Source: Lama glama
Taxonomy: Eukaryota
Reading direction: 5' to 3'
Assembly: GCA_028534125.1 (NCBI GenBank)
Contig: CM052816.1
Coordinates: forward strand, 21,516,001 to 21,580,000
DNA length: 64,000 nucleotides
In this document: positions 11,740 to 60,708 of the stretch, in pieces
Position numbering within the stretch: the stretch's first letter is position 1
How the letters are laid out: each line of letters opens with the position of its first letter
Notes under the pieces: generated by a model
What the model saw: the letters and a program-made list of their open reading frames with translations, nothing else
Told to the model about the DNA's origin: nothing
Databases searched by the model: none
Position numbers and translations under genes: made by a program

Positions 11740-11815
11740 TCAGAATGAAGTTACTAGAACTTTGGGATTTTCTTCTTTCTCCATGGAATCTTTTGTTTTT
11801 TTCCCAAACCTGAAC
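11740..11815 (-). CDS. SLC22A4: SLC22A4 exon 10, coding part to the ancestral stop
   Basis: Acceptor TTCAG|GTTCAG; reads FRFGKKTKDSMEKEENPKVLVTSF followed by TGA; 76 bp. Confidence 0.94.
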
Positions 11816-12358
11816 CTGAAAATAAGATAAGTGCTAAAGAAAATTAAATATTTAAGACTTCCCTCCTCAAAATGCCAAAATGACACTGAAAAACAGGTAT
11901 CCAGTCAATGAACAGGTAATTATTTTAACTCTAATAAGAACCTCATGAGCCTAGAAGTAGTCTTCTGTGATGTTACAGTTTCCCTGAGGAAAGAGTAAAG
12001 TGGCAAGCACGATGGTCTTGGCAAGTTAAAGTTGATGTTAAAGTAGTTATTTTATTAGAGGAAACAGCTTATCAAAAGTAGGCACCTTTTGCTGTCCACA
12101 TTCAGTCTGGGGTCAGAATCCATTCACATATGGACTTATTTTTATCAAGCCAGGCATTAAAAACACTTTATCTTGTATAACCTCACAAAAGCAATATGAA
12201 CTATTCCCACACAACAGATAGGAATACTGAGGTTTAAAGAAAATTAAGCAATGTGCCCAAATTTATGCAGTAGATTTGGAATTTGAGGTCAGGCAGTTTC
12301 ACTCTAGAATCTCAACTTCTACCATACTACTAATCTTTAAATGTTTGCCAGTCTATGA

Positions 12359-13640
12359 TGTCATAGAAAGATATTTGATTTTTCCCCCTAGTTCCTGACT
12401 CAGAGCTCGTAAATCTCTTGTGATGTCCTGAGTGACAAGCGTAACAGGAGCGCTTTGCCTCTTATTCTAATGAGGCAGCTCTTGTCCCTAGATAGCTTCA
12501 CGAGGAAAGCTGGTCTCCAGAAAGACCAATCCTTGACTAGAAGCCTGGAATTTTCAGCCCACGCACCAACCTCCAGGGAGGGGAGAGGGCTGAAGCTGAA
12601 TTAATAATTGATCATGCCTATGTGATGAAACTTCCAGAAACCCCCCAAAACACTAGGGCTCTGAGAGCTTCCAAATTGGCAAACATATCCATGTGCCAGG
12701 ATGGTGATGCTTCCCAACTCCTCAGGACAGAGGCTCCTGTGCTCTGGACCCTTCTGAACCTCACCCTGTACTCTTCTTCATCTGGCTGTTCATTTGTATT
12801 TATAACAAATGGGTAACAGTAAGTAAAATGTTTTCCTGAGTTCTGTGAGTCATTCTAGCAAATTCCTGAACTTGAAGACAAGGGTTGTGGAGACACTGGT
12901 CTTTGTACTCAAGATGGACACGTTGGGGCTCAGGGCAGGTTGCCCCCAAATATGCTACAGGGCATATCGATTAATTTTTATTGAAGTTGCTTGTGAAGCA
13001 GCCAATGCAAAAAGGAAACTCTGGCCTCCTCTGCAACCCTGAAAGCAAGAAATAAATCTCTCCTCTCATGTGAAAGGTGCACTTCCTGCATCTGGATGTA
13101 GGGGTTCACACTTACTACCAGAGAGAGACAGGGAATTCAGGGCTGGACCAAGATGTCTGTATAAACAAACGTTGTTATTTCTTTACAAATTTACTACCCA
13201 AGCTCAAACTTTGCTTAAATTCCTTACTAATTAAGCACCCAAACCTAAGTTTCTTTGTCCTGTCAATCCCTCTCAAATTTATTGTTTGTGTGAAAGGTGT
13301 AAACGCTGCCTTCTTTGGCCACTTCTTAGGTCCTATTTCTGTGAAATTTCCATGAACATTAATCAAAATTTATTTCTTTTTCTCCTGTTAATCTGATTTG
13401 TATCATTTTATTATTAGTCTAGCCATAAGAATGCAAGAGAGGTAGGGCATAAATTTCCACCTCCCTGACAGTCAAAAGTGTGGATAACCTTGGGGACCCA
13501 TTACTTGCAACTGGAGTGTGAAGAGAGGGCTGTCTCACGGGATTGAGACTTGAACCTATGATGCTAACTTGGGTAGTTAGTGTCACAACTGAATTAACTT
13601 ATAGGACACATAGTTGGTGTCAGAATTGCTCGAGGTCAGG
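12359..13640 (+). mobile_element. MER21-like LTR split by a nested LTR
   Basis: MER21-like sequence at 12359-12920 resumes at 13471 (aaagtgtggataaccttggggaccc...ttggtgtcagaa). Confidence 0.7.
12921..13470 (+). mobile_element. MER34-like ERV1 solo LTR nested in the MER21-like LTR
   Basis: Begins (c)gttggggctcag...ccccaaatatg and ends ...ctccctgaca; imperfect 4-bp flanks gaca/gtca. Confidence 0.65.
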
Positions 13641-13679
13641 AGGAAAAACCCTCGCACAATCTCACAGACCAAAAGGTGG

Positions 13680-14425
13680 ATGAGTATTTCTTTTTCATGT
13701 ATATGTTTTCCACTGAAATTGCCTTTTCTATAAAACTGCTTGCTCATGACCTTTGCTAGCTTTCCTAGAGTTCTCAGTTTGTCTTTTTTCCACTCGTTGC
13801 TAAGAGCTTCTTGTGTATTAAGTTTATTAACCCTATGTCTATAGTGTGTGTTGCAAATATCGTTCCCCTGGTTTGTCAACCTTTGCCCTAATTGACTGTT
13901 TCATTTTTGTTGCACCAACAATTTCTAAAATTGCATAATCAGATATATTAATCTTTTCCTTTATGGCTCTTTACTTTTTATATCATGCTCAGAATGGCCT
14001 TCTTTAAGGATATGAAAATGTTTATGTTTTCTTCTGGTACATTTATGATTTTACAAGTTTAGGTCTTAATTTTTAATCTTTCTGGAATTTATCTTGATAT
14101 ATTTTGAAGTAGGATTCAAGATTTTATTTAGCCAAAATAATTAGCTGAATTTTCTATCATCCTGTACTGAGTAATCTAACTTTTCTCCACTGACTTTGAA
14201 TTGCTACTTTTCATCATACACTGAATTCTCATATTTTCTTTGGTTTAATTCTGAACTCTATTCTATTGCAGTGATTTATTTTCCTATAACATTATCACAT
14301 TGATTAATATGCTTTATTTACTGTTAGAGCTCCTCTCCCCTTATTACTCTTCCTTTTCAGAACCTTCCTAGCTATTCTTGCATGTTTATTCTTTCTGAGG
14401 AATTCTGGTATCATTTTTTAAGTTT
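13680..14425 (-). mobile_element. Old L1 remnant in intron 9
   Basis: Diverged antisense L1 ORF2-end sequence. Confidence 0.6.
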
Positions 14426-14432
14426 CACTTAC

Positions 14433-14567
14433 CCTTTCACTTTCTGCATCTGCTCAAGGTCTCTGGTAGAGTCATTCCAAAACTTTCAGGGAAAAAAAGG
14501 GTGATGATTCCAATCAGGACAGTCAGGCTTCCCATGAGGATGTAGGGCAGAACTCTGTTGTAAGCAC
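14433..14567 (-). pseudogene. SLC22A4: SLC22A4 exon 9 with a 1-bp deletion
   Basis: Acceptor TACAG|GTGCT; reads [36 protein letters not shown], then TT- GAG CAG ATG CAG AAA GTG AAA; donor AGG|GTAAGT. 135 bp instead of 136. Confidence 0.93.
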
Positions 14568-15575
14568 CTGTAAGGCATGGGACAAAATCAATTAGATACA
14601 GGAATTATTCAGATGCTCTTGAGAATCATTTTATAAAGGTGGCAAACAGTATTTAAGAGCAGTTTTAAATCTGAATATTTACAGAAGAAAAAAAGCACGG
14701 AAAATGTCAGTTTCTGTTTGGCAAATGTCATTGCCCCCGCATTTCCATAATCACTCACCTACCTGGTTTTTGCATTATCATGCAGTCGTTCATGTCAGCT
14801 GGTATTCTCTAAGCTTCTACTTAATTATGCGTGATAGATGTTCAGCTGATAGAAATTTCTGCCTACCAAAGTTGTCCTCTTGGACATTGAAGGTCATTGG
14901 AGATGGGAGATGGGAGGACACCAAGGGGCAAGAGGTTGACTAGGATGTTGCAGGGACAGGTAGTGGCTGTTATGACTGGTTGGACATTTGCTTTTGACCA
15001 AATCAGTAGGCTAGGTCCACAGAGCTGTGAGACTCTTTTAAAAAACCTAAGTAATATTTTTAATCCAGTTTAAATCAAAAAATTTCAGGCACTGTGGTTT
15101 CTGTTTGCAGCATTTGTATATCTTGGTTTTATATGAAATTGGAAGAACACTCCACCTCTCCTTTATCTGGCGTTACTTAGACAGGAAATAATAGATCCTT
15201 ATCTTGCTCCCCTTCTGCCTACAGAGATTACACAGTAACAACACACCCAAGAATTTTATTTGACAAAAATGTTCATCTTGAAGCTTCTCTGAGGTCTCTG
15301 TGTCATGAACAGGAGTAGCTGTTGTGGAACAGAAAGGTTTTGCTCAGACTCCTCCATTTCTTCTGTACCAGTGGTCCACCATTAGGCCACATGACCATGC
15401 TTTGAAAGTACAGGGAAGAACAAAGGGGAAATGACACCAAAATATATAATAAAGGACTTTCTCAGGTATTGTTCAGGGCAGCTGTGTGGAATATGTTTAA
15501 AATAGGAAAATGCTTCTCTTTCTCTGTAAGGATTTAGAGTGTACTTTTTCTGAGAATTCGTGTATGTCTCTGAGG

Positions 15576-15577
<2 letters not shown>

Positions 15578-15606
<29 letters not shown>
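15578..15606. repeat. (TG)n microsatellite
   Basis: About 14 TG units. Confidence 0.95.
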
Positions 15607-15610
<4 letters not shown>

Positions 15611-15759
15611 AACCAGCAGGTAACCTATGGACGACTAGGAAGAATAAGGAGCTGTGTCTACATCTCTCACCAGTAGCGTTCCTGATGGGGATTAGGCTTG
15701 ACGTGCCAGAGCCTACATCCAGTGAACAACCTACTAAAGCCATTCTGTAGTGTTATTCC

Positions 15760-16690: not shown

Positions 16691-16729
16691 TATTTTTAAA
16701 AAAGAACAGACTGATAAGATGCATCTCAC

Positions 16730-16912: not shown

Positions 16913-17750
16913 CTGGCAAAAAGAGACCCAGTGTAAACAGAGATGCTTTTAGAAGCATTATTTTCCTAATTCAGTTGCTGATATTGTCCTTTTTGCTAAT
17001 ACAGGAATGTTTTATAACGTAAAAGTGTTCCCCCAAATTACGCTTTATCTTCAATGTCTTACTAATTGGACATGGACAAAGACAGAGTGTGAGGGGTTGC
17101 TTTGAGCTTTGTTCTTCTGAATCATTTATGCATTCAATGACCTTTGTCCACTTTTATTTACTACAACAGTTTCATAGTAAGCTGTTAGCATGTTAATATA
17201 GTTAAGTTTAATATTTGAAGAGAAGGACCAATCCTTTTTATCTTGTTTATTGTTATTAAGAAATATATATTTCTATGCATAATACTATATATCAATAATC
17301 AGTTGACAACATTTTAACAACATGAAAAAATTAGACATAGGGAAAATGAGAAGCATGTATCTTTTCATGTGGTTTCTAACTACTTAAAGATTACAGACCA
17401 AATTTATACTGGAATTGACATGTACTACCAACTCAGAGAGAAGGTCTGAAGGTACCAAGAAATTGGGAATCAGGACTGTGACTCAATGAGAGAGGTTTCT
17501 ACAAGGACAATTACCGGGAGCATTACTCTTCCTCTTCAGGTGGTAATTTCTGATTCTCCGAGGCTAACTTTTATGTTTGAGGGGAGTAATTTGAACACAG
17601 GAAATCACAGAGTTTACTATCACTTGTTTAACTGACTGATGAGTTGTTTATGATGTAAAGGCTACATAAACAGGGAGCAGTGACTAATAATTAGCCCAGT
17701 GAAGGTGTGGATTTTTTCTGGTAAGCTGTTAATATTGGATAATTTCTTAC

Positions 17751-17965
17751 CTGCAGGTACCAATTGAATTAAGAGAAGCACACCTCCTGCAAAAAGCAGT
17801 ACTCCAGCTATGACATAACACCTGGACAGGGTTTGAAGTAGCAGCCAGGCTGTAACGTAAGCTGGAACTTCAATCAAGGCAGAGAAGAAACAGTTCAGGT
17901 AGGCATCGCCATGTAAATTAGGAGTGTTGAGAGACAGAGCAAAGTAACCCACCGAGGTTAGCATC
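17751..17965 (-). CDS. SLC22A4: SLC22A4 exon 7 (frame open)
   Basis: Acceptor TTCAG|GATG; reads [71 protein letters not shown]; donor CAG|GTAAGA; 215 bp. Confidence 0.95.
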
Positions 17966-18059
17966 CTGAAAGTCAAGAGAAAAAAGACAAAAATGACAAA
18001 AGAATGACTTGAATTACTTCACAGTTTCATGATGATCAAGAAATTGTCTAGATCCTCCT

Positions 18060-18262
18060 GCCTTACAAGCAGACACTAGCCACAAATAGCTATTTAAAAG
18101 TAAATAAATTAAAATTAAATAAAATTGTAAGTTCCATTCCTCAGTGTGGCACTAGCCATACTTCAATTGCTTAGTAGCCACATGTGGCTAATAGTTACTA
18201 TGACGGACAATACAGATATAGAACATTTTCATCAATGCAGAAAGTTTTATTGGACAGCTCTA
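18060..18262 (-). mobile_element. MER3-like hAT-Charlie element
   Basis: tagccacatgtggcta palindrome; terminus cagaaagttttattggacagc. Confidence 0.8.
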
Positions 18263-18422
18263 GTCTAGATATGCCAATGTTCAACAATACCTCTCCTAGT
18301 CTAGTTAATTTCAAGTTTCAATATTTCCTGAAGAGTGTACATTCTCATTCCTGCAGAGCTATTATTTGAAGAAGGAGTGTTGGTCACATCAGTGAACATA
18401 AAACCTGTATTTCATTCTTACC

Positions 18423-18487
18423 AAGAAGAAGAAGGAGAAGGGGAAGAAGGAGGAGGAAGAGAAGGAAGAGAAGGAGAAGCAGCAGCA
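18423..18487. repeat. Purine-rich (GAA/GGA)n low-complexity tract
   Basis: aagaagaagaaggagaagggg...gaaggagaagcagcagc. Confidence 0.85.
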
Positions 18488-19631
18488 TAGGTAATACTGT
18501 GGGATCCACTTACAGTAAATTCCAACTGATTTAGTAAAACTCATTTTAGGGAAAAAAGAGAAAGCCCCATATTGCTTCAAAGTATCACAGAGTGCATATT
18601 TCCATATCCTGTCTTTATAGTTAACTTCCATGTAAAAGCTTCTCTGTGGAAGAAAAACCATACTATGCAGAAATTTGCTTATTATTAACATGACTGAAAA
18701 GCAGAGGGCTTCTGAAAAATGTTTTCAGGAACACTGTTGGATCTTTTTATACATACTCTACTAGGTTGGATAGCACAAGAGCTAATCTAAAACAATTTTT
18801 AAAAACTGAAGCTTTAATTGCTCTAGGTGATTTTCACATTAGGTAATGAGAGTAGCCTAGATAAAACTAGTGACTAGTTTATTACTGGCTCAGTAGTGCC
18901 ACTACTTGAGATACATTTCCATCAATGATATATGCTGACATGTAAGAACTAAGGAGGTCTATTTTGAGGAAAGCCATATGCCTAGGACACACTTGCTTAA
19001 TTCAGAGGCATAAACTCTGTCATTGACTTCTTCTAATTGCAGAACAGGATGGCCCTAAAAATAGACAAGCTGCAGTCTGGACCTACTCTTTTTAGTGCTG
19101 CCATCATGGGGTAGGCATGTTCTTTTTTCCTTCTTCCTCATTTCTTGGCAGATACATTATTAAATCTAGTCTACAAAGTCAATTCAGTATTTCTATGCCT
19201 TAAAATCCACTTGGTAGATGGCTATTAGCAAGTATTAAAAGATTGTCAAAACTCCAATCCAGGCACTGGGGATTCAAGTTATTCCAGCCTTACTCATCAG
19301 TTGCCAGTACAGCTTCAGGAAACAGGAGCTGAATTAGCATCTTGGCTTCAGGCACCAGGGACCTCATAAATCTTAATCCCAGGAACCTTGGGAGGGATGG
19401 GGAACCCTTTCCCTGTGGGTCACAGTATTGCAGACTTAAATACTGTCCCTTGTGACTTTTTTTTTTCAGTAACCAGTTCCATGAATTAAATTGAGGCCTT
19501 CCCAAATAACTTAGAATTTTAAAATTTTAGTTTCATCTCAGGAAGACCTAGGCCTTGCCCTGATCATCCCTTGAATTAAAGAAAATTAGCTGTATATTTA
19601 CATGTAAAATCAAAAAACTAAATCTATTTAA

Positions 19632-19855
19632 TCAAATGAATCTATATACAAAACAGAAACAGACTCACAGACATAGGAAACAAACTTAAGGTTACCAAAG
19701 GGGAAAGGGAGGGTAAGGGGAAAATTGGGAGTATGGGATTACTAGATACAAACTACTATACATAAATATGCAGCAAGGATTTACTGTATAGCACAGGGAA
19801 CTATACACCTGAAAGTAACAGACCATTATAAATCAACTATACTTCAATAAAAACA
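19632..19855 (+). mobile_element. Short young L1 3' end (artiodactyl type)
   Basis: caaatgaatctatatacaaaacagaaacagactcacagacatag...ctgtatagcacagggaactata...aatcaactatacttcaataaaaa. Confidence 0.85.
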
Positions 19856-20259
19856 ATTGGAACTAAAAAGTTACAAGGCTCTGAGGTGGGGAATCTCTCC
19901 AGGATAAAATCTCTCTGTGGCCCTATGATGTGTGTGCAGTAAGAGGTTGAGGAAGGAATTTCTACTAAGAAGGAAGTAAGACTGCCAGACCTCATTATAG
20001 CAGGTGCTCCCCAGATATTAGCATCCTTCTTTCCAGAAAAAATCAGACACCTCCTCATGCAGCTTACAGCCATATGACCTTTTGGCTTTTGTACCACTTG
20101 GAGTATACAGCTCTAGAGCACGCCCCCGAAGCATAACCCTGTTATCACAACAAAGCAAAGCTCCTATGAAACTACTGGGAACTAGCAGTCCTCCTGGAGA
20201 GCTCTGGGGGTGGTGCCAGGCACAGACAGGATCATGCTAACGCTTGATGCTTCCACAGG

Positions 20260-20388
20260 ACTTGTGAAAAATGCAGATTGCCAGGTCCCACCATGGGCCT
20301 GCTTCATCTGAATCTTTCCTGGAGCCCGGCCTGGGAATCTGGATGTTTAAAGGGATGACTGTGATAAGCATCCAGGTTTGGAAACCTG
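20260..20388. mobile_element. MER5-like DNA transposon fragment
   Basis: cttgtgaaaaatgcagattgccagg...ggcctgggaatctggatgtttaa. Confidence 0.6.
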
Positions 20389-22084
20389 AGAACAAGAACA
20401 TTCTTGTATCCACTGCTTGTTTGTCTCTGGCCTGTACAGAGCCACTAAAATGCCTTTGGACCAGGCTGAAGGTGCTTCAGAAGAGAAGCCAGAGAAGCTC
20501 AACATCTCCTTCCAAGCTGATACTACTCCATATTTTTTCCTGTTCAAATTAATGCCACTGCCCCTTACATGAGATAAGAAAACACAGCTTTTAAGAGCAC
20601 ACACTTTGGCACCAGAGAGACTTCGGAAAAGCACAAGCTCCCTTTCCCTCCACAGGCTCATCTAGTTGACACTCGATGTGCCTCGCGGCAGGAAGAAACC
20701 AGGCGTGCTGTCACAAGCGAATTTTCACACTGGCCTTTATTTTTACTTGTCTGTAACTATTTATCTCTTCTATATTTTATTCTTGCTTTCATCCATGTAG
20801 GTCTGATCTTTAATACTAGACTATAAGTTCCTCAGAACAAGAGTCAGACCACATATCCACTAAATATCAACAAACACCCAGGACAGCTCTGAGATGCACA
20901 AGTGTTAGACACTCCCAATGTTATTTTTGTATCTAGTCAAACTGACAAAGGCTGGGAATGGAATTCTTGATCTGAAGAGCAAAGCATTAAGATATATTTG
21001 CCCTGGCAGCCCTTTGAGAGCTTGGGTTCATGGCCACTGTAATTAATCCTCCGGTCATCACCAAGGTATCTGCTCCTGTCAAAGGCCACAAAGACCAGGG
21101 ATGGAGGAAGCCCTCAGGGTAAGGCACTGGCATGCCTGCCTCCCTTCACAGAGTCCTGCTTTCTGGGGTGGCCTGGAGCACAGATGTGAGCATGGGGAAA
21201 GCAAGCAGACTAAGAAGCATATGGTCTTGATGGGGTTTCCTGAGCAGCCCCCCACCCTTCTCCTAGCCAAGAGTGCCCTGCCCCACCCTCTCCATCCATC
21301 TGTGTGTCCTCCCTGGTTTGGACTCTTCAGCCCTGAGTCACTCTGCTCGCTTTCTCTGCTGGATCACAGTGTCCACTCACTGGGTACTTCCTCCCTCATG
21401 TCATCCTTTATCTTCCATCGAAACCTCTTGACACTCAGTTACATTCTCTGCTCCTTAAGCACAGAAACTATGTCTAATTTTTCTTGTTTTCTCTAGGAGT
21501 TGGCACGGGGCATGGCTGAGGACACTGTGAGTCCTCACTGACTGTCAGGAAGTGCATCTGCTTCCATAGGATACCAGCTGTTTTCTCGTGGCCTCCTGCC
21601 TGCAGGGGTGAATCCTCCAGCCTGAGCTCTCAGGCATCAACATGACACAGCAGGACTAAAGACATGGCACAACTTCCTCAGCAGGCTTTGGTAAGATTCA
21701 GGGGACAGTGGGGAACCCGTGGGTGGAATACCCCTCAAACACATTTTTCCCACTTAAACTGGACATTTGAAAAACAGCTGTATGTATCTGCATCAATGGT
21801 ATGGAGCAAGACCAACAAAAAGTTGAAGATAAGCTTGCAAAAGGGAAAGGAACTAGTATTTAATCAACACTTGTTCTTTGCTAAGCAGTTTACATATATT
21901 ATTGCACTTACTTGGCCCACGGCCCTTTGAGGTAGATTTTATCTCAGAACTTCATCATTATTGTGTCTCTAAGGCCTTGAACAATGCCTGGTACATAGTG
22001 GGCACCCAAAACATAGAGTCAAATTAAAGTCCATGATCAAGAATGCATAGATGATTTCAAGAGGAAACATCTACAAAGGCTTAC

Positions 22085-22210
22085 CTCCACAGGATCAAAA
22101 ACCATGACTGGGACAGCTACGTTGTTCACTTTTGCAGCTTTTTGGATGGTATCTTCAGCTTCTTTAAATCTTCTCTGGGATATCAGCCACCGGGGAGATC
22201 AGGAATAAAC
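22085..22210 (-). pseudogene. SLC22A4: SLC22A4 exon 5 with a 1-bp deletion in the PESPRWL motif
   Basis: Acceptor TTTAG|G TTT ATT CCT GA- TCT CCC CGG TGG CTG; continues [33 protein letters not shown] in the shifted frame; donor GAG|GTAAGC. 126 bp instead of 127. Confidence 0.93.
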
Positions 22211-23269
22211 CTAAAATTCACTTTTAATGGTTTATAATTTTTCACAGTAGCAAGGTTTGATGTTACTAATTGTAAGTTGCCCCCGAGTAATTTTTATTTT
22301 GTAAAATGCTAGTTTGTCTTTTTAAAGAACATCAGGAGGGAAGCCTCATGTGAGTTCCATTGATTGTAGGAACAAATAAAAGTACCTTCAAGTTTCAAAT
22401 TTTTGATCAAATCATAGAACCGATCATCAGTTGTGCTCGAAGCCTGGACCAGACTTTAAGGGGTAACACTAACTGTGGGCATGTTTAAGCCAGGGCAGCT
22501 GGAGTATGCCGTTCAAAACATTATAGCCAGTGTGGCTTAAGAGAAACACAGCCTAGGGTCTTTTCAGTGTGTCTATCCCTGGGAGCATCCCTGCTGCCCC
22601 AGCTGGTGATGCTCACAAGTTTATCGGGTAAGAGAGGGCATCTGTGTTCCTCAGGCTTTTCCGGCAGTCAGAGGAGGAGGTGAGCATACTGACATCCTCC
22701 TGCAGGCTGTCCCCAGGGCTTTCAACAGATTCCCAGCTCAGTGAGCACCCAGACCAGTTTTGGGGAGACAGATAATGTTGTCTTATTTTTTTTTAATGTC
22801 TAGAAACATAATTTTTTATTATACAATCTATCCACATTTTAAGTGATGCTCAAACACAGTTGACTTCTTTCCTAATTTTTCTATTTTTTCTATTTCTTTT
22901 CATCATGATTTATTTAATTTTCCTATTCTTTCCTCATTTTTATTTCTCAGAATTGCTTAGCCATCCTTCTGTCCGGTCTTGTTGCTCTTGCTTTCCTTAG
23001 CTATTTGTCAGTACTTAGTTATCCTAGAAAACAAGTTATATGTAGCAGATACCGAGACCTCCTGTAATTAATGGGCCCCTCCAAGGCCTCAGTAGGGATT
23101 ACCTCAGAGCAAAACACAACATACAGAATGGCCAACCCCCAGCTTCCATTCCCAGCCTACTACTAGCATATGAGTTGAAAAATGAATCCAGTTTGCATTT
23201 TTCAGATTGTACCCTTAGTTGGTCCCTGTAGCAACTGTAATGATGGGAGGTCACTGACCTTCAGTAGTT

Positions 23270-23450
23270 AGAGCTGTGCCATCCAAAAGAACTTTCTGTG
23301 GTGTTCTGTATCTGAGCTGTCCAATAGAGCAGCCACTACACGTGTGACTATTGAGCTGGTGTGACTAGTCAGACTGAAGAAACTAATTTTAATTTATTTA
23401 CTTTTAATTAAATGGCTGCCTGTGGCTAATGGTGACTGTATTAGTGCAGA
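23270..23450 (+). mobile_element. MER3-like element
   Basis: tccaaaagaactttctgtgg...gctgtccaatag...tgtggctaatggtgactgtatt. Confidence 0.7.
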
Positions 23451-24686
23451 ATTAGCAGTTTTACCCCACAACCACCGTATACTGCAATGGGCACTTCTGC
23501 TTCTGAGAGATATCTTTACCCAACCAGGTTGTTCTTAGAAATATCCTACCTTTCTTACTAGGGGCTCTCAGGGCCATCACTGGCCTCAGGTTCCTAATAC
23601 TTAGTCAGCTAGATATTGCAGAGCTTTTCCCATGTTGCACCTGTGGGCTCCTTCCCCACCCATTACGCACATACTCCATTCATACCTAGCCACTTATTGC
23701 CAAGCCTTTTAAGGGAATGTGGGACATAAAAAATCCCCAGACTACCTACAGTAGCTCTGTGTAGGTTCCTGCCCACTGTACTCAGGGTTGCTGCCATCTC
23801 TACTTTTGAACTGCCACGGTTTTTTGGTGCATGAAGAATCAAGTCTAGCTGATCATTTCAAGTTAGTGGAGGGCCAAATGAGGTTGTACACTCTAGCCTC
23901 TTCATAGATTTAATCCAGATTGAACAGGGGAAGGGTATTGCTGGAGAATTCACATCACATATCGAGTAGGCAGCAGGGATCACAGTAGTCCAAAGCACTT
24001 CCCACATCATCCCAGCCCACCCAGACGGATAAGCATTGCTTCAGAAAGTACCACCATCAAGGACAAGACATTCAAAAGAAAGCTATTTTGTTTTTATAGG
24101 AAAATGATAAGACAGTTGTTAAACTTTCAGGGCAAGCACCCAGCTTATTTGTCCTGGCCCCGGGCTGCCTTCTGTCTGGGGCAGTCCTGTCCCTGGTACA
24201 GAGTGCCCACAGCCAGGAGCACTCATGAACCAGCCCGTGGGCAACAGAAGGGAGAACACTCCTCAGGGCAAGAGTAAGGCAGCTCCTTGTGGGATGGACC
24301 TTCTTTGCTAGAAACTCAAGGGGCTGGCCTAGCAGAGCTGTTCCTTGCAGTGATGTTTGGTTCTGAGGCAAAGAACCAAGTCCCAGAAATTAAAACCCCT
24401 ATTAGTCTCTTATGGCCAATCAGGGCCCTTTTATTTTTGTACTCTCTCTCTCTCTCTCTGATAGAATCATACACTAATAAGGTTGATTATAACATTTTCA
24501 AAGTACTTATCTCTTATGCCAAAATGACAGCTAGAGCCAGGGAACACAGATTATTAAAAGCTTTCATCTGAAGAGGCAGAAAGTAACCTTTGAATAATAT
24601 TGTCTTATGTCTTGAGAGACCCTATGGTCACCAACATCTTTTACAATAAATTCAGTTAGCAAGGGGGTTGTGGAGAGATGGAGGGT

Positions 24687-24717
24687 GTGATGATGGTGAT
24701 GATGATGATGGTGATGA
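24687..24717. repeat. (GAT/GGT)n trinucleotide microsatellite
   Basis: tgatgatggtgatgatgatgatggtgatga. Confidence 0.85.
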
Positions 24718-25946
24718 CTCTCATTCCAGAAAACTTCCCTGCTCGCAGACTGGGTCAGGAACTCAAAATCGTATCTACCCCCTAACACACTACCTCTCAA
24801 ATTCTAGGGAAGTAAGAAAAAATTTCTCTCTCTCCCCCATGCACACCCATGCCAAGAATCTGCACTGGTTAAACCACAGCAGTCTTAGAGGCACCCAAAG
24901 GACAGTGGTTCGGAGTGGTCTAACTTGAGCCACGTGATCCAACAAGGCCAGGAAGTACTACCTGTCAGCCTCTACGGCTGCCTGACAGTTGCAGCAAGAT
25001 GAAGGCCCTGCTGGGAAATCTCCTAAGGCAGTGTGACCACACGACGGGGCAACCACGAGGGCTAATGAGTTCCAAAAAATGACCATTGTGTGTAAGCAGG
25101 TAGAGATGAAGCAGTTCAGCAAAAAACAGTCACTGCTGGGAGATTTGACTATGATATCATGAGACCAAACCAAGACTAATTAATAAGAGAGAGAGAGAGA
25201 GAGTGCCAGACCCACCAATGGAAAAATAATGCCCTTTCCTCTTGCTTAAATATGAAAAAAAACAAAAAAATGGGGAATTCCCCCAAAAAGAGGGTATGGC
25301 TAAGGACTTTATTCCATTATTCTTAATCTTTTCTCTCACTTGAAATTTCCCACTTAATCACACTGGGTGAAAATGGGGCCAGTATCTCAACACTTTGTTA
25401 TTCCTACACTGCTGTGTCAAAATTGGGCTGGAGGGTTGTAGGGGGAGAGAAGAAAACATTTCTCCAACAACTCTTTAAACAAAAGCAATTCTCTCCCCCT
25501 TCAAGACAAAGCAGATAAACAGGCACATCTTAGATGCTAATCATCACATGATAGGGATGCTTGAAGAAGCTACATTAGTTGAAACCATAAGGAGAAAGAG
25601 GTTTGCTAGAGAGAGAAAAGTGTCAAAAGAGCAGGGCGGGGGCAAAATTAAAAACAACCAAGCCCACAGTATCATCTCCACAAACAACAACCAGCAGTAA
25701 CAGACAAGAATGGGGAGAGCCTGAGTGGGAACTGGGTTTCCTGAGAACCGAGCTTTGTGGGCCGGTGGAGAATCACACCCCAGCATGCGGGCTCCCCCCA
25801 CCACAACGAGGCAAATGGTCTCTGGGCTTCGAGGTCGCAGCTCACTGCAGTGAGATCAGCAAACCCATGCTAGGATCAGCACCAGGCTCTCGGCTCCAGG
25901 CTGCTGGCCTGCAGCAGGGGGCTGTCTGGGATGGAGCCTCACTCAT

Positions 25947-26117
25947 CACCACAGCGGGACACACAGCACCCTGGCACCATCAGCACCAGCAGCAGCATCC
26001 ACCAGTCTCTGATGAAGTAAGCAAACAGTGGCAGCAGCATGTAGCCAAATGCATAAAATATGCACACTCCTAACGTAGAGAATATAATACGAACTGACTT
26101 GCCAAGAATTTCTGCTC
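25947..26117 (-). pseudogene. SLC22A4: SLC22A4 exon 4 with a 1-bp deletion and a mutated donor
   Basis: Reads (G)[48 protein letters not shown], then CCA GG- GTG CTG TGT GTC CCG CTG TGG TG. 171 bp instead of 172. Followed by ATGAGT rather than GTGAGT. Confidence 0.93.
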
Positions 26118-29100
26118 CTGTTCAAAACAAGGGAGGAGTATTAGCATTTTAACTCATTTTAATATTTGCTTTTCACATCATTACCTGGCAGGCAGAGTTC
26201 AAAATACAACCATGTAGGAAAGGGAAGAGGTGTTTGTTTTATGGCCTCTGCAGAGCAGGAGCAGTCAGGGTGGAGAAAGGTGGGAAATGACCCAAGACTT
26301 ATCACCTAGAGAAGCATGAGTTTTGTGAGATTTTAAAGGAATCATAGATTTTTATTTTTTTAAGGCCACCTCATGTCATAGAAACATCATGTCCAGCCCC
26401 AGGAGGTAATCTCTTCAGAGAATGTCATATTTCCAAAGTAAGAGCCCCGAGGTAAGTAACAGAAAGGGTGTCCCAGGAGATGTGGCGGCTCTTCCAAGGG
26501 CTGCATGCGTGGTGGTGCATTCAGCCCTTCCCACAATTCTCCACTGTAAGTAAGCAGACTCCAGTCTCTTGGGAAACAATGGAGCGTTCAGTTAGTGAGT
26601 CGGGTTAGGACACACTTAGCCATCTTCAGCCCTGGGAAACAATAAAGGGGAGCCAGCTGGCTCTGGAGGAGCAGGGAGCAGGTCCCTGGCACCTAGGGCT
26701 GAATTCTGCTGCAGCAACACTGTGCCCAGGGATCAACCCCAGGCGGACACAGCCCATGCAGACCAAGGGAAGACAAGAAAGACCTGCTCTACTGGCCAGG
26801 CTGGCGACAGCCCTAGAGCTGGCCACACACTTTGGGGCTCACAGAGCTTTCCCACACCACCACAAAGGCCCAAGACTGTTCGGTGTCCCGCCCTGTTTTG
26901 GGAAAGACTCCTGCTCTGCTCAGCACCACAGTGGGTGGTTTAGCTCCAGTTCTTCCAGAGACATTGCCTGCCCCTTGGGGCACTTGGTTTGAGACAGGGA
27001 GTCCAAGAACAAGCTCCTTTTGTTGTCACAGAGCTCCAGGCCCTTTCCAGAGTTTACTCTTGGTCCTCTGCCCTGGGGTGGAGATTTGGCCAATGGCAAT
27101 GGCTCCATCTTTTGAGATCTGCCCATCACTATAGAGAAATAGCCCAGAAAATACAAAACAGACCATTCAAAGGTCATTCAGGCTTGGCTTTCCACAGAAA
27201 TTTTCTCAATTGTGTTTATATGCCCTGAGCACAGGCTAAGGAATTAAGGGCTAATTCCAGAGCAGCAGTAAAATCACTACTTTGGCTGGTGTCTCTTTCT
27301 CGCCACCTGTTCCTGTCCCCACCTCTCTTCTTTCTCATTCAGCATAACTGAAGATGTGCCTCAGTGTTTTCCTCTTGAACTGCCGTTTCTAAAAGCTGGA
27401 CTGATAGAAAAGGCTAGTACTGTGTACTCCTTGCATCCCAGACTGCAGAGAGTAGCCTTAATCACACAGGGCATTTCTCAGCCTCTAAATTCACTTCCAG
27501 GGATAGGGCCAGACTTCTTTGAGGATCGTGAGTGTTATTTCCAGATCTTTTCTTACCTCATTAATGACCTTCCTACCACTTCATAGGAAGACTCACCATG
27601 CCATATGGGAATGATATGGGAATGAATAGGGGGTGATTTATTCCTAAGCAGAGATTCAGAAGGGAAGCAGCAGAGGATGTGACTATGGAAAAGAGAAAGT
27701 GTACAGGACCAAGTGAAAATCTTGTAGACTCATGAGGCCAAGGAGCTCCCTTAAACTTCCATGCCCCTGATAAGAGAAGAGAGAGAAGTTACACCACTGG
27801 ATTCCTGGATACTCTCCCTCTCTAAGCTTGGATCTCAGGCCAGAACAGAGCTGTTCTAACTTTGCAGAGTACTCACAGGGACAGAAGAATTATTAAATAA
27901 ATCTACCCTGCCTCTGCCCTTCTGTGGAGCAACACGAATGGCACAAACCTGAATAATCCCTTGTTAGCACAACTTTACACTCTGACTTCTAGACAGTCAC
28001 CTTTCCTTGAAGATCATCATCACCATCATCATCATCTTCTTCATAGCTAGCATTTTTTTTTGAGCAGGCCCTTTGAGCCAGGTTCCAAGCTAAGTGTTTA
28101 TGTATATTATCTCTTTGAGTCTTCACAATAATTACATAAGAACTAATATTGCTTCTATCTTACACATCATCAGCTGAGACTTACAGAGTTGAAGCTAATT
28201 GCCTAAATTCACAGCCAGGATTTTAGCCTGATCTGTTTGGCCTGTGGATACCATCCAGAAAAGAATCACCTGGGGTCAAAGCCTTGGCCCTATCAAGCAG
28301 TCCTTCAACTGAGGCTCCATTGGAGACATGTGTGGGAGATGGGTGAGGCCATACTTGCTTTTTAGAAGTTAGGATTTGCATTTTCTCTGCCTGGGCTGGT
28401 CTCTGAGCCAACTAGCCCCCTCAGAGGGACACTGGCAGAGGAGTCCTGATTCCTGCAGACTTCTCACGGCCTCCAGGTACCACAGATTTTCCATGTGCTT
28501 AGCTGGCAGTGAGATGGGTTACAGTGGTGACTTCTGGCTCTGCTGACTGGGGATCCCTGTCCTGGCCTCCTTTACCGCCTAGGTTTCTGCTCCTAGGGCA
28601 AAGCCCACTTGGTCTTGGTCTGGTTGGGCCTCTGAGTGGTCACTTAGGAGTGAGACTCCGACAACTAAGCCAGAGGGACATGGCCTGCAGGAGTGTTTGC
28701 CCACAAACTGTCACCACCACTCGAATCTGAGCACTCTCTCCAAGAGGGCGTGACTGAGAAAGGGCCAGGCTTACTTCCACGTTGATCAGGGCCGTTCTGT
28801 GGTGGTCAGCCCAGGAACCACTGGGTCCTTTCCACATGAGGCAGGACCTGCCCTTCCATAAGTGACCAACAGAGACCTGTAAACCCCTGCTCAAGAAACC
28901 AGGATGTGGAGCAGGACCCAGGGACCCCTGGGACGGGAGTGCCCTCTACTAGGTATATGCAGGGAGCATTGACGCTCGTGTGACTTTGACAGGTCCTACT
29001 TCATGGAGCTATTATTGTAAGGACTGAGATAATGCAGGTAAAGGGCCTGGGTGAGTGTCTGGTATGTGGTAGGTACTTAGGAATAATTCTGTTATCCCAG

Positions 29101-30268: not shown

Positions 30269-31205
30269 TATGTGGCTGACAAAGGCTTCATGATTGATAT
30301 AGTGCAATTACCATCTTGCCTGAGCTTTCCAGTAGCCAAAGTTATAAAGGGAGGTGCCATCAGTTATGTACTTATCAAAGGAAAGAACACATTTAAACAT
30401 CAGTAAATAGTAAATAGTTCAACATGGAACAAATACTGCATAGGAGGCTGATGTTAGTTGTACTGGAAAAATACCAAATTAATGGATCAGTGAAGGCAGG
30501 AGGCAGTGAAGTGTGCAAAATAATTTCAAGCAGCCAGTTATGAGAAAGGATGATGCCACTGGAGTTTTACCCAGAGGCTGTGGACAGGTTAAAGTTATTG
30601 CTGGGAAACAGTAGATTGTGAGGGGCAGCTGGAGTGTGGGTGGAGTCAGTGTCCTCGGTCCTGGTAGTCATTTCCTCCTGAACCAGAATCATTCTGGCAG
30701 CTTCCACGTGTGTCCACACTGTTCCTTTAAGTAAGGAACTGTTCCTTCCTTCCCTTTTCTTGTCTCCTATGACTCTGGCAAGCTTTACAATTGTTTTAAA
30801 GCAGAGCAAGGAGAGGATCTGTTTCTGCACCACTTTGGAAGTGGGAGTAATTCAGCATCCTGAATTAATGTGAATACTCCTAAAATGGGAGATTATCATC
30901 ACAGAGTCTTGCCAACCCTTCCCTGGAGCCAGAGGGCAAAAGTGAAGATCCAGACAGAACTCAGACCAGACCCCAAACTCTGGTTTCTTTTAGTTAAATA
31001 AAACCCGGAACTCGACTATTTCAGCCCTGGAACACCAGAGAGCGCTGCTGTGCTGTGGGAAGCCTGCCCGCCGTGCCCTTGCACTGTCCCCCGACCCCGC
31101 CCCACCCCAGGTGCTGCTGACGAGGGAGTCTGGCTGCTCCAGGGGAAGGTTGATTTTCAGTGACACTCTTTAAATGTTCAGGCCTGAGAACAAATCTCAT
31201 ACCAG

Positions 31206-31705
31206 NNNNNNNNNNNNNNNNNNNNNNNNNNNNNNNNNNNNNNNNNNNNNNNNNNNNNNNNNNNNNNNNNNNNNNNNNNNNNNNNNNNNNNNNNNNNNNN
31301 NNNNNNNNNNNNNNNNNNNNNNNNNNNNNNNNNNNNNNNNNNNNNNNNNNNNNNNNNNNNNNNNNNNNNNNNNNNNNNNNNNNNNNNNNNNNNNNNNNNN
31401 NNNNNNNNNNNNNNNNNNNNNNNNNNNNNNNNNNNNNNNNNNNNNNNNNNNNNNNNNNNNNNNNNNNNNNNNNNNNNNNNNNNNNNNNNNNNNNNNNNNN
31501 NNNNNNNNNNNNNNNNNNNNNNNNNNNNNNNNNNNNNNNNNNNNNNNNNNNNNNNNNNNNNNNNNNNNNNNNNNNNNNNNNNNNNNNNNNNNNNNNNNNN
31601 NNNNNNNNNNNNNNNNNNNNNNNNNNNNNNNNNNNNNNNNNNNNNNNNNNNNNNNNNNNNNNNNNNNNNNNNNNNNNNNNNNNNNNNNNNNNNNNNNNNN
31701 NNNNN
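31206..31705. other. Assembly gap (500 N)
   Basis: Run of N in intron 3, flanked by identical 125-bp sequences. Confidence 0.99.
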
Positions 31706-33906
31706 GCACTGTCCCCCGACCCCGCCCCACCCCAGGTGCTGCTGACGAGGGAGTCTGGCTGCTCCAGGGGAAGGTTGATTTTCAGTGACACTCTTTAAAT
31801 GTTCAGGCCTGAGAACAAATCTCATACCAGGACACAAAACTCAGCAGTTTCCCAAAGAGCACAGTGGAGTAAACCTACAGCCAGGGAGGCTCCCAGAGCA
31901 CCCTATAATAGCCCCAGACCCAGGCTGATAGGAGCCTGCTGCACCCAGCTTCCCACCTGCTGATTGCTGGTTTGAACATCTAGGCTCGGACTGATCTTAC
32001 AGATCTTACTTTCCCCTTGGCCCTCTCACTCTTCTCAGCATGGAGAGCAGGGAGGGAAGTTGGTTACAGTATCAGGGTCAGTTGGGCAGGGACTTTCCTG
32101 CAGGAGGCCTGGTGTGGGCTCTCCTGGCCTCATCCACTCACAGGGGAGGCTCTATGGCCCCAGAAACACCCTGTGCCACTGGAAAGACTGGTCTCAGTGC
32201 TGGCCATTCAGTAGAACCTAGGGGATACCATGCATGGCACACACGCCACCAGGCTCCTGATCCCAATGACAGGGCTTCTCAGGCTTCACTGTGACTCTGT
32301 CCCCTTCCACTTCAGAGGATCCTTTAGGTCCTCCTAAAGTCAGGCAGAGCCCTCTGTTTTGGGGAGGCCTGTTTAGTCTCTGGTTTGTTCTACCCCAAAC
32401 AGCCACCCACTGGGCTTTCCAGGTATAGGGCATCGCTACAAGGAAGATGGAATATGCAGAATTTATATCATGAAAACAATAGATTTTGCTGTGCCCAAGA
32501 CCCCTGTGTCCTTGGGGCCATCAGGCATTAGAAGATTGCAATTTCTGTCCTAAATTCCTCCAATCTCCAGTTTCCAGCAAAACTGGCTGGAGGCTCTCTG
32601 GGGCCTCTACGTAACAATCTCCTTTGGAAATTCTTGCTCCCCTTTTTCCCCCTTCAGGGAGGAGAGAGCCCCACTTCTGCTGGGGCTGTGTGGCTTCAGC
32701 ATGCCCCTCCTTCCTCCCCTCTTATGACACTATGGCTGGGCCTGTGGTGAGGGGCTCTTCACAAATGATTAAAGGAGTGGAATTTGAACAATTCCATCTT
32801 GGCAACCTGACAGAGGGTGTATGCATCCTCAACTTAGAGAACACAGCATCCTGAAAGCCAATGAGTCATCCAGACTCTTAAAAGTGATCAGAATCATCTT
32901 ACTAGATTCAGATTTTTGAGACAAGAAGAATCATTAGACTTACATTAAAGGGCCACTCTTAGTAATTACACTGTGACAATAGGGACAATCTGGGACAGCC
33001 AGGAAGGACATTTGATCACACTGGAGATTATGGGAATTGGTGCCTGTTGTCCCAGAGGTTCCCCTCTATCTCCTTCTCTCTCCAACTCAGAGGGAGCACG
33101 TAGGCTCAGAGAGCATGCTGGGGCCTCTCACTCCTGTGGATGACTCTCATCAACCTGCCTGGAGCTCACCCCACTGCCTCTGAGGGAAACCTGGTGAAGG
33201 GCCTGGGGGCCTCTTCATGGTCTTTAGCTTGTGAGGCCCCTTCATGCAGCCTGATATTCCAGAAGAAGGCTGCTGCTAGGATACAGGACTGCTCTCATCA
33301 GTGAGGGTCATCGTGCACACAGCTGTTAGGCTCTGGTTGTGGGCTCTGACTCAGGGTGAGACTAGATCTGCCCAATGATGGCAGACTGGTGCTGGACTCC
33401 TGTCTGGCACATGTCTCCTCCACCTGTGTACTGGCCACACCAACTATTCTAAGTCCTTCCATGGGCCATGACCAGCTGCCCTTTAGCCTTGTCCCAGGCA
33501 GAAGTCCCAAGCTTTCATAGCTCAGATCAAAGACATCCCTAGACTGTTGCTCCATTAAGATCCCCTCCTCTGTGTTTCTCCCAAGCCCTGTGCTCCTGCG
33601 ATGTGTCTCAGCTGGTTCCTCCCAGCTCCAGCTCTTATTTAGTGTCACATTTCAGGACTTAATACAGAGCTGGCTCCCTGTGAGTGCCTGCCCTGCCTGT
33701 GACAGATCAAAGAACCTGTAGCTATAATCCCCTCCCCAGCATATATACATCTGGAGCTTATCACATTTGGAAGCACAGCCGTGAGTTGAGGTGCTTCCTC
33801 CTATGCTGAGTAAAAGCACTCACTGTAACCTCTTCAGTGGCCTCCTCTTCCCAGGCCTCTCAGAGGGGTGGAAGGAGGAGCCCTGCAGTTCAGAAGCCAT
33901 CCTTAC

Positions 33907-48420: not shown

Positions 48421-50539
48421 GTATCCCCTTTTATAGACAAGGAGACTGAGGCACTGAGCAATGATGTAACCTGCTAAAGTCATCCCACTGGTTAAAGACA
48501 GGGTCAGAAGTGGCCCTCTGGTCTGACTCCAGAACTCCTCCTTGTGCCATCGCCTCTCTGGGGAGAACCACCCCACCCTACCCACTTTCAAGCTACTCCT
48601 TTCCTTCCTCCCAACTACTAGTGCCCCTTTGCCTTTTATTTTACTCCTAGCACCCAAAAAGGAAGCCAGGAAGTGAAAGACTGCTGGAAAAAGCAAGTCC
48701 TGGTGTGTATGTGTGAGAGTGTGATGATGTGCCTCCCCAGAGGTACCCACAGGCCCCTGTGAAGAGCACAACAGGGATAGCTATGTACTTGTAAGCCAGG
48801 AGCTACCCACCCCTCACACCTTGAAGTGAACAAAACAAGCAAGAAAGGGGAAAGAGACAAGTCAGCCCAGCTGTCAAGGAGGGCTGCAGCCAGTAGGGCC
48901 AGCTCCAGCTCAGGTGCTGACGACACTTCCAGGACCAGAGGATGGGCAAGCACTAGGAGCCCCTGCTAGGAGATCAAAGCCAGAGAAGCACGGCCACCTC
49001 AGGGACCAGGGTCAGCATAGTGCCAATGCTGAGGGGAATCAAGAGGTGCTCCACATACTGAGTCCACTTTCCACAGTTCCTATTGACTCCACAGCCACTG
49101 CTCTTACCTGGCCACCAGTCTCCTGCCAAAACAATTCCCACAGCTTCCTCACTGGTCTTCTTGTTTTTCATAGCAGTGAGAGTGAGTTCTTACTCAAAAC
49201 ACAAATCTGGCCATGTTACCTCTTCCTTTGAACCCTTACTATTTCCTCACTGTCTTCAGAATAATGTCAACTCTTCAACATTCTTACAAGGCCATTGTGA
49301 AGATACCCCTGCAGACATTTCTAGCCTCACCTGCCATTCCTTGAGTTCCAGGCCATCTTGATCTATGAAATCCCATCCCCAGAATCTGCCATGTTCTTTG
49401 CCTGGTCACATTTCCAGACTCAGCTCAAATTTTAACACCTCTTCTTAAGAGTATTTCCTCACCCTGCTATCTCCACAGAAAAGGTAATTTTTGCCCCAGG
49501 TCACACAGTAAGCCTGTCAGGATTTGAATTCAGGTTCCTGAACCCTGTTCCTAACCAGGTATGATGTTAGCTGACTCTAACATGGCCAGTGTGCCCTGTG
49601 GGCATCTGAGCTTTGAAAGCACAAGGCCAGGCATGGTATCCTATTACTGTCCCACTGTGCTGAGGAAAGGAGATAGAAGACTAGCAGACACTATGCTCAG
49701 GTTTTCACATAGAGCAGAGGAGAGGCCAGAAGCTGGGAAATTCTACATGCCTGATTTAACAGCAGAAAACGAGTCTATGAGGGTAACCTCTTCAGAAGAT
49801 GTGTGCTGATCGAGCATCTCCTGGTCCTTATCAAATGCAAAATAGGAAATGCAGAGGACAAAGTATGTCTATATCTTGACTCTTGAAACTTAGAAATCCT
49901 GCCACTAAACCATGTCGGATGGAAGGGAGTAATGGCATAAGCTGGAGCCCTTGTCCACCTCTAGGCCCTGTGCTCAGATGGTCTCTGTGAGTCTGTCTCT
50001 TCATGAGTGCCTTGAGGTCAGGGTTTCCTGCACTTTGCCAGTATCAGGAGGTTCTCTGCTCCTTTCTAGAGAAATTGGAGCCTCAGGACAGGACCCAAGC
50101 CTCACCATAGAGAATGACAGAGCAGGAGACCCTCTGATGCTTCCAGAAGTCTGTGGGCAGGGAACAGGCCAGATCTGCCAAAGCCCTGCCCAGCAGCAGG
50201 GCTCTTCTTTGTGTCTGCATGTGGGCTCAGCAGCAGCCCCCACACCTTTCCTCAAGCCTGTGGCAGGAACTTGACTCAGGCTGTACATCTGGGGAGCCTG
50301 GGGCCGGTGGTGTCTAGACTCTTGGGAAACAACTTGGTCTGTTGTGAAACTGTCAAAGGAAAAGGCAGATGACAACGGCCTCCTTTCTTTCTTCTCCGTC
50401 CCCTTCATATTAGACAGAACAATTAGGAATGAGCCTAGGTGAGTTCTGCTCTCTCTGGCTGCACAACCCTGTCGTGCGTCAGCCAGGTTTGATGAAGAGT
50501 CGGGGACGCTGATCCAGGCATTGCCAGGGAGTCTAGGCG

Positions 50540-51760
50540 GGGAACTGATACAGATGAAGGGTCGCTCATACACTCACCTCAGTCACAATGGTGGACAAGT
50601 AGACGTCCTGGCTGAACTCCCAGCCATCCAGGCAGCTCTTCTGCTCCAGCTGCTCCAAGTCCACGTCGCGCCCCGGCTCCAGCCCGAGCGCCAAGAAGTT
50701 GACGATCGTCGCGAGGCGGTAGCGGCGGCAGCCGTGAGGCACCTCGCGGCCGTCCTGCAGCCGCAGCGGGAGACTGTGGTTGCGCCAAGCGAGGCTCAGG
50801 TTCGCGGTGTCCGGCACCCGGCAGCGGTGCTCCGGGGTCCCCGCCAGGAACACTACTGGCATACCGTTGAAGCCGTTGGGGATGATGCTGGCGCTGAGCA
50901 GGAGGAAGATGAGGCGCTGGAAGGGCCCCCACTCGCCCAGGAAGGCGGTCACCTCGTCGTAGTCCCGCATGCTTCCCGCTGCTGCTCTGCAGTCTGCAAC
51001 AACGGGCGATAAGGGCGTCCCTCGGACAAGCGTCGCGCGGCGAGGGCGCTCCCCGAGGCCGTCAGAACGTTCTCGCGGGCCAGGCAGGCTGAGGGAAAGT
51101 GGAGCGCGCCGCCAGGGACCGTTCCCGGGAAGCGGGCTGCGGGCGTTGGTGAGTTCCTAGGAAATGGTCGCAAAGCTGGAAGGCACGGTATAAATTCGGG
51201 ACCACACCTCCATCCTGGCCGGGGCGGGGAGGGTGGGGCGGCCGGGACGGCCGAGGTGGGGCCCGGAGCGGCTCCCCCCGCGCTCCGCCCGCCGCCCCGG
51301 GCGACCCCGCGGTAGACCCGGCTGAGGCCTGGAGCTCAGGTGGGCCGCCCAGCTCCCGCGCACCCCGCGTGCCCCGCGACCGCCAGCTGCTGAGCGCCCA
51401 GCTCCGAGCCGCCGCGTTGGGCACCACGGGGGCGAGCGGGCGAAAGGGAAGAGCTGAGGCGGGAGAGCAAAGTCTTTGAGAGGTCGGGCCGCGGCCCTCT
51501 CTGTTGGCGTCGCCCAGGCCTCATCCGGGCGGGAGGCTCTCCCTTGCCACTTCTAACCCGGAGTCTGAGCTCAGAGGGCCTCGCGCGAGGCGTGGACGGC
51601 CGAGCCCGTGCCGTTGGTGCTCCCGGGAAACTTCTGTGGGCACAGGGGTGGCAGGAGCACACCATCTCTTCTGGCACACCGCTGCCCGAGTGGCCGGCAC
51701 CAGCCGACCCGGCCCTCGCCTCCGCCCCCATCCCCCACCCCACTTCTCCAATCCTAGAGG
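50540..51760. promoter_or_regulatory. CpG island and GC-rich promoter of SLC22A4
   Basis: Very high GC and CpG density over exon 1 and upstream. GC boxes (GGGGCGGG at about 51221, GGGGCGG at about 51235) and a RUNX-type ACCACA at 51201-51206. Confidence 0.88.
50578..50970 (-). CDS. SLC22A4: SLC22A4 coding exon 1 (frame open, 131 codons)
   Basis: [22 protein letters not shown]...[19 protein letters not shown]; 393 bp; donor GAG|GTGAGT at 50577. Confidence 0.97.
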
Positions 51761-60686: not shown

Positions 60687-60708
60687 GTGTGTGTGTGTGT
60701 GTGTGTGT
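60687..60708. repeat. (TG)n microsatellite
   Basis: About 11 TG units. Confidence 0.95.

Follow-up and report, generated by a model that had tools for sequence, protein, structure and literature searches.

A classic nutritional unitary pseudogene is GULO in primates and the guinea pig, a single-copy gene, conserved elsewhere, that encodes a biosynthetic enzyme and whose loss creates a dietary need. Here we describe a comparable locus in the llama, in the stretch C1:21516001–21580000 (64,000 nucleotides; hereafter the window, whose positions are used throughout unless a sequence name is given). The window holds a multi-exon gene of the SLC22A4 type on the minus strand, recognized by tblastn with pig SLC22A4 (P0045, 551 aa). 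We conclude that the orthologous SLC22A4 of this camelid, the gene for OCTN1, also called the ergothioneine transporter (ETT), has very probably decayed into a unitary pseudogene. As with GULO, the decay would have happened in place in one lineage and would alter the handling of a small antioxidant; unlike GULO, the gene that is lost encodes an uptake carrier, and access to a dietary compound would be removed.

The counterparts of the gene in other placental mammals, such as the pig (P0045), the gray whale (P0016) and the hippopotamus (P0019), belong to the same clade and share its exon layout and its neighbours. In contrast to their open 551-codon frames, the llama copy has three frameshifts, a dead splice donor, no exon 6 and 15 private amino acid changes. 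SLC22A5 (OCTN2, the carnitine transporter) has the same ten-exon plan and the same strand as SLC22A4, but it is intact, falls in a separate clade and carries carnitine. According to excerpts from three reviews, the ergothioneine transporter is conserved throughout the vertebrates (PMC13277114, PMC4633038, PMC7653990). In passages of the first of these, a 2026 review, ergothioneine is reported as undetectable in the tissues, plasma and urine of OCTN1 knockout mice, and zebrafish ETT knockouts are reported to have 1000-fold less ergothioneine, normal morphology and more 8-oxoguanine (PMC13277114). Judged from its sequence, the llama would likewise be without a working transporter from this gene. 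However, the mouse and zebrafish knockouts are laboratory alleles in short-lived models, whereas the loss described here would be natural and probably fixed, in a large, long-lived herbivore.

The tblastn comparison with the pig protein returned nine ordered exon matches that run from 50970 to 11743 and leave residues 318–339 unmatched. Exon boundaries were fixed by reading each exon and its flanks in three frames, which placed nine of the ten SLC22A4 exons between 50970 and 11740. Six of them match the corresponding SLC22A5 exon exactly in length and three fall short by 1 nt; with the loss of exon 6, this deviation from the ten-exon plan is the damage itself and not a sign of another gene family. 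Exon 1 is 90% identical to residues 1–134 of pig SLC22A4, and over the nine surviving exons the protein identity to other placental SLC22A4 reaches 91%. The possibility of a processed (retrotransposed) pseudogene was rejected because eight introns are kept and the copy stands in its ancestral position. A first-pass annotation of the window had called an intron-containing SLC22A4 at this place, and the limits that it gave, 11740 and 50970, are exactly the stop and the ATG. The only run of N in the window, 500 nt long (31206–31705), lies in intron 3 and touches no exon; it is flanked by identical 125-nt copies (31081–31205 and 31706–31830) and looks like a scaffolding gap with overlapping contig ends.

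The intact SLC22A5 paralogue of the same genome, with exons of 393, 104, 155, 172, 127, 101, 215, 183 and 136 nt, served as the yardstick for the lesions. All ten of its exons are present with AG/GT splice sites, its 557-codon frame is unbroken over 1,674 coding bases, and its product differs from alpaca OCTN2 (P0024) at two of the 557 residues (G412S and S542L). Measured against it, exons 4, 5 and 9 of SLC22A4 are each short by a single nucleotide (171, 126 and 135 nt versus 172, 127 and 136 nt). Pairwise alignment places the exon 4 deletion in GTGCC-AGGGTG, where SLC22A5 reads GTGCCGGGGGTG (context 25977–25964), the exon 5 deletion in CCTGA-TCTCC, where SLC22A5 reads CCTGAGTCCCC (context 22203–22194), and the exon 9 deletion in GAGACC-TTGAG, where SLC22A5 reads GACACCATCGAC (context 14463–14450). 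The donor of intron 4 (25946–25945, minus strand) is AT rather than GT, with TGGTG/ATGAGT at the exon–intron boundary as opposed to TGGTG/GTGAGT in SLC22A5; the remaining SLC22A4 splice sites are all AG/GT. Both kinds of lesion, three −1 frameshifts and a GT>AT donor, had been named in the first-pass annotation and were recovered here. A reading of intron 4 as a U12-type intron, for which AT–AC is the consensus pair, was rejected, given that the intron begins with ATGAGT and ends with AG. A GT within 25948–25951, 3 nt upstream of the mutated donor (G/GTGATG), is a possible cryptic donor, which could serve but would not restore the frame.

With the exons joined at the splice sites that survive, an open frame of 289 codons ends at a TAA (22166–22164) in exon 5, in the position of codon 290. 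The product as it stands thus consists of 265 native residues followed by 24 residues that are out of frame. Rescue of the frame by the lesions in combination was rejected: the shifts of −1, −1 and −101 amount to −103 past the position of exon 6 and the sum is −104 past exon 9, neither of which is a multiple of three. By contrast with the broken frame found here, the SLC22A4 models of pig, whale, hippopotamus and ruminants are open, and the lesions therefore disable a gene that is intact in relatives. Radical missense changes, which the first-pass annotation had mentioned, are also present. Exon 7 reads QTLSRC (17835–17818) where RTLPRR is conserved, exon 8 reads NKAVG where NMAVG is expected, and exon 1 has NFL in place of NFS (S93L), by which a sequon is lost. 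The last base of exon 8 is T and not G. In the codon that spans exons 8 and 9, this turns a glycine that all 37 other mammals share into cysteine (G484C), and it alters position −1 of the donor.

The absence of exon 6, another claim of the first-pass annotation, withstood searches at the protein, DNA and whole-genome levels, each with positive controls. No run of N lies between exons 5 and 7. A protein Smith–Waterman comparison of 17990–22090 with the pig exon 6 peptide gave a best score of 32, and chance matches elsewhere in the window score up to 43. At the DNA level, SLC22A5 exon 6 scored 10 on one strand of the interval and 11 on the other (200 shuffles: mean 10.7, maximum 14), whereas the positive controls, SLC22A5 exons 2, 5, 7, 8 and 9, matched their SLC22A4 partners with scores of 35–74. 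The whole assembly (2.35 Gb, unplaced contigs included) was then searched in six frames with a 62-residue query made up of exon 6 and the start of exon 7. SLC22A4 exon 6 was absent among the seven matches at E ≤ 10, which comprised SLC22A4 exon 7, SLC22A5 exon 7, SLC22A5 exon 6 (53% identity, E 0.004), one other SLC22 gene and three matches at chance level. This search did recover the paralogous exon 6 of SLC22A5, and given that sensitivity we conclude that SLC22A4 exon 6 is absent from the assembly. The tandem repeats of the interval between exons 5 and 7 are two short arrays that give no clue to the origin of the deletion.

To place the gene among its relatives, we used a maximum-likelihood tree of 33 SLC22A4 and SLC22A5 proteins together with the conceptual translation of the window gene, in which an X stands at each break. 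The window protein falls inside the SLC22A4 clade (support 100), not with SLC22A5, and inside Cetartiodactyla (97), where it is sister to pig, hippopotamus, whales and ruminants, the position expected of a camelid. This branch at the base of Cetartiodactyla and the near-identity of SLC22A5 to alpaca OCTN2 (555 of 557 residues) together identify the source as a camelid. The tree thus agrees with the first-pass annotation, which had assigned the gene to SLC22A4 and the animal, with a probably, to the camelids.

The neighbours of the gene are those proposed for it at the outset, PDLIM4 and SLC22A5, and both are on its strand. SLC22A5 lies in tandem on the minus strand at C1:21489953–21512342, 15 kb downstream of SLC22A4. 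On the other side, the last exon of PDLIM4 (LIM domain, C-terminus) occupies C1:21580818–21581075 on the minus strand, 0.8 kb past the end of the window and 14 kb upstream of SLC22A4 exon 1. Its identity comes from a database search, in which PDLIM4 of many mammals, the alpaca among them, matches it at 99%; in the protein atlas it met generic LIM-domain clusters only. The order PDLIM4–SLC22A4–SLC22A5 on one strand, which we take to be the human order, is therefore kept. A genome search with pig SLC22A4 produced at least 29 matches at E ≤ 0.001 and 93 candidates, the best 79 of which were scored. Among the candidates scored, only two loci exceed 55% identity, the SLC22A4 locus and SLC22A5, and the others, at 22–37%, are other members of the SLC22 family. 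No second SLC22A4-like locus emerged from the whole-genome six-frame searches, in which the best candidates of a fragmented assembly were scored; an intact copy elsewhere, the possibility that the first-pass annotation had flagged, was not among them.

Constraint on the protein was gauged by counting private changes against 37 placental SLC22A4 proteins, at 276 columns that are invariant among the others. The window protein has 15 such changes, as opposed to 0–4 in each of the other 37 species, of which 19 have none. Several of the 15 are CpG transitions when compared with SLC22A5. In the tree, the terminal branch of the window protein (0.082) is the longest in the SLC22A4 clade, and the median of all 34 rows is 0.021. 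The private-change count is a mark of relaxed selection, and from the excess of changes at invariant sites we infer that selection on the SLC22A4 protein ceased millions of years ago. Rough arithmetic from the branch excess and the three small deletions in about 1.56 kb, with textbook neutral rates and no computed model, gives a time without selection of about 6–19 million years, a range that does not tell whether the loss is older than the divergence of camels from South American camelids. With orthology, disabling lesions, the lack of a second copy and relaxed constraint all in agreement, the unitary pseudogene proposed in the first-pass annotation is supported.

Exchange with the intact paralogue has left traces in the gene. 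SLC22A4 and SLC22A5 are 94% identical at the DNA level in exons 1 and 4, and 72–80% in the others (2, 3, 5 and 7–9). Around exon 4, a tract of ~140 nt (SLC22A4 25990–26145, minus strand; SLC22A5 L027:9225–9410), which covers ~25 nt at the 3′ end of intron 3 and continues ~113 nt into exon 4, shows one difference between the two genes, and its flanks are unalignable. This tract is a recent gene conversion from SLC22A5 into the SLC22A4 pseudogene, to which the SLC22A5-type residues (I, Y and F) found in SLC22A4 are due. In exon 1, the similarity includes 50/50 stretches and ends sharply at the ATG and at the donor, a pattern that points to concerted evolution of exon 1 in the tandem pair. Among solved structures, the one closest to SLC22A4 exon 1 is of OCTN2 (9pdq).

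Several observations weigh against a decayed gene. The lesions are known from the assembly sequence alone, and two of the three 1-nt deletions fall in short G runs (GGGG to GGG and GG to G), contexts in which some sequencing methods err. The assembly is fragmented, with 1,072,352 contigs, and an intact copy could have remained unassembled. The gene might accordingly be functional and its lesions errors of sequencing or assembly, for example through miscalled homopolymers or through a collapse or false join that conceals exon 6, and the scaffolding gap with its duplicated 125-nt flanks in intron 3 may be added to the same side. We nevertheless regard this explanation as highly improbable. The strongest argument at hand against assembly noise is SLC22A5, which, 15 kb away in the same scaffold, is flawless over its whole coding sequence. 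Moreover, the lesions are of four kinds, which include a base substitution in a donor and a missing 101-nt exon with no run of N nearby; the exon 5 deletion lies outside any homopolymer; exon 6 is absent from all contigs; and 15 private substitutions at invariant sites are no error signature. In addition, 15 DNA runs, filed under six organism codes and six study codes, contain 0.90–0.96 of the sampled 31-mers of 17700–26200, shares that do not tell which words are missing. Such shares under six codes suit a set of very closely related taxa and would tentatively favour, to some degree, a South American camelid over a camel. A null haplotype that segregates, or that is private to the sequenced animal while intact alleles exist, would fit the fact that the evidence comes from one assembly, but we consider it very unlikely. 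For five independent disabling lesions to accumulate, together with an at least four-fold excess of changes at invariant sites, selection must have been absent for millions of years, and so long a neutral decay is hard to square with an intact allele that selection maintains. Runs under six organism codes, furthermore, have 0.90 or more of the 31-mers in common. That the copy is a dead duplicate of a working SLC22A4 elsewhere is extremely unlikely. In favour of a duplicate stand the fragmentation of the assembly and the restriction of the genome search to scoring the best candidates. However, the copy occupies the ancestral position between PDLIM4 and SLC22A5, the matches beyond the two OCTN loci are at 22–37% identity, and an exon 6 of the SLC22A4 type occurs nowhere in the assembly.

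Other observations against the decay concern the promoter, transcription and age. The CpG island over the 5′ flank and exon 1 is undecayed: in three 400-nt bins its GC content is 0.68–0.75 and its observed/expected CpG ratio 0.73–0.95, as CpG-rich as the island of the working SLC22A5 (0.83–0.99), versus 0.18 for the whole window. The SLC22A4 locus may therefore still be transcribed, and its island may be unmethylated in the germ line. Two RNA runs contain 0.23–0.24 of the words of 17700–26200, a mostly intronic region; we draw no conclusion on expression from these shares. The terminal branch exceeds those of pig and sheep only modestly, and the loss is therefore not ancient. Finally, at the level of listings, no measurement of ergothioneine in a camelid was found in the full-text literature on camel, alpaca and dromedary. 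Some of these observations would suit a locus that is dead as a transporter but retained for another role, for example in yielding a transcribed non-coding RNA, in serving SLC22A5 or PDLIM4 as a regulatory landscape, or in encoding the six N-terminal helices as a fragment. The undecayed island, the splice sites that are intact at all junctions but one, the recent gene conversion from SLC22A5 in exon 4 and, as a share only, the words in the RNA runs can be cited for it. However, no direct sign of transcription, or of conservation beyond neutrality, was seen, and CpG islands can long persist without coding function. We think such a role unlikely; it is in any case compatible with a unitary pseudogene and not opposed to it.

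For the decayed SLC22A4, the consequences can be sketched from the lesions. A message that uses the remaining splice sites would be subject to nonsense-mediated decay, and any product would be a six-helix stump that lacks the C-terminal half of the 12-helix transporter. No ergothioneine transport would be expected from the SLC22A4 locus, and the camelid would absorb and keep hardly any ergothioneine unless another carrier took over. This prediction is made by analogy, because of the phenotypes of the OCTN1 knockout mice and zebrafish, and the animal is probably a natural knockout for ergothioneine uptake. A candidate substitute is SLC22A15, on which ergothioneine is among the compounds tried in one study (PMC11880989). 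A wider proposal, which we advance tentatively and regard as doubtful, is that the loss happened before New World and Old World camelids diverged, that every living camelid is an ETT knockout with next to no ergothioneine in its red cells and tissues, and that camelid biology permitted or favoured the loss. Candidate traits behind it are, for example, the unusual red cells, foregut fermentation or the avoidance of a plant betaine that is also imported by the carrier.

No report of SLC22A4 loss in any mammal was found by full-text literature searches, although large machine-made gene-loss catalogues and camelid annotation records may already flag the locus. The excerpts of PMC4633038 and PMC8382914 report no such loss, and the three text supplement files of a 62-mammal gene-loss screen contain no SLC22A4 entry (PMC5865188). 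Among the best 120 matches of either database search there was no SLC22A4 protein from the same species or from any camelid, and the top identity was 92%; in contrast to camelid SLC22A4, the alpaca SLC22A5 and PDLIM4 proteins were present. The absence of a camelid SLC22A4 protein from these searches fits annotation records that already flag the locus. A metagenome scan with the exon 4 translation yielded four relatives at 46–65% identity among 591 pattern matches, none of them camelid. The llama SLC22A4 is very probably a lineage-specific unitary pseudogene, and in kind its loss is a familiar event.

Whether ergothioneine is needed for health is debated, and the evidence comes mostly from knockout mice and fish. 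If true, a natural loss of the carrier in a large, long-lived domestic mammal would make the vitamin-like status of ergothioneine directly testable. Camelid pharmacology would also be affected, since OCTN1 carries some drugs, and annotation pipelines should call the SLC22A4 locus a pseudogene. The features of the locus are collected in Table 1.

Table 1. Features of the llama SLC22A4 locus, with positions in the window.
Feature	Position	Strand	Remarks
SLC22A4 exon 1	50970–50578	−	393 nt; open frame from ATG at 50970; GT donor
SLC22A4 exon 2	35501–35398	−	104 nt; intact; AG/GT
SLC22A4 exon 3	34061–33907	−	155 nt; intact; AG/GT
SLC22A4 exon 4	26117–25947	−	171 nt versus 172; 1-nt deletion in G run; 5′ part is gene-conversion tract from SLC22A5
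SLC22A4 exon 5	22210–22085	−	126 nt versus 127; 1-nt deletion
SLC22A4 exon 5–7 interval, expected place of exon 6 (101 nt)	22084–17966	−	exon 6 not traceable
SLC22A4 exon 7	17965–17751	−	215 nt; open frame
SLC22A4 exon 8	16912–16730	−	183 nt; open frame
SLC22A4 exon 9	14567–14433	−	135 nt versus 136; 1-nt deletion
SLC22A4 exon 10, coding part	11815–11740	−	final TGA at 11742–11740
CpG island, putative promoter	50600–51799	−	5′ flank and exon 1 of SLC22A4
Private changes	SLC22A4 protein alignment		F23L, S38P, S93L, E111K, V135A, P143Q, F239Y, R257W, A262V, T264M, I296T, P398S, R400C, G410A, G484C

Rfam gave no matches in the window. Long runs of His-Thr and Cys-Val appear in the stop-to-stop frames at 15560–15625, in intron 8, and at 60690–60760, in the intergenic region upstream; these translations suggest (CA)n/(TG)n microsatellites at both places. 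Elsewhere in the genome, another gene of the SLC22 family at C14:41439378–41448571 (plus strand) has unusually long open exons (frames of 194 and 210 aa) that are 29–37% identical to SLC22A4.

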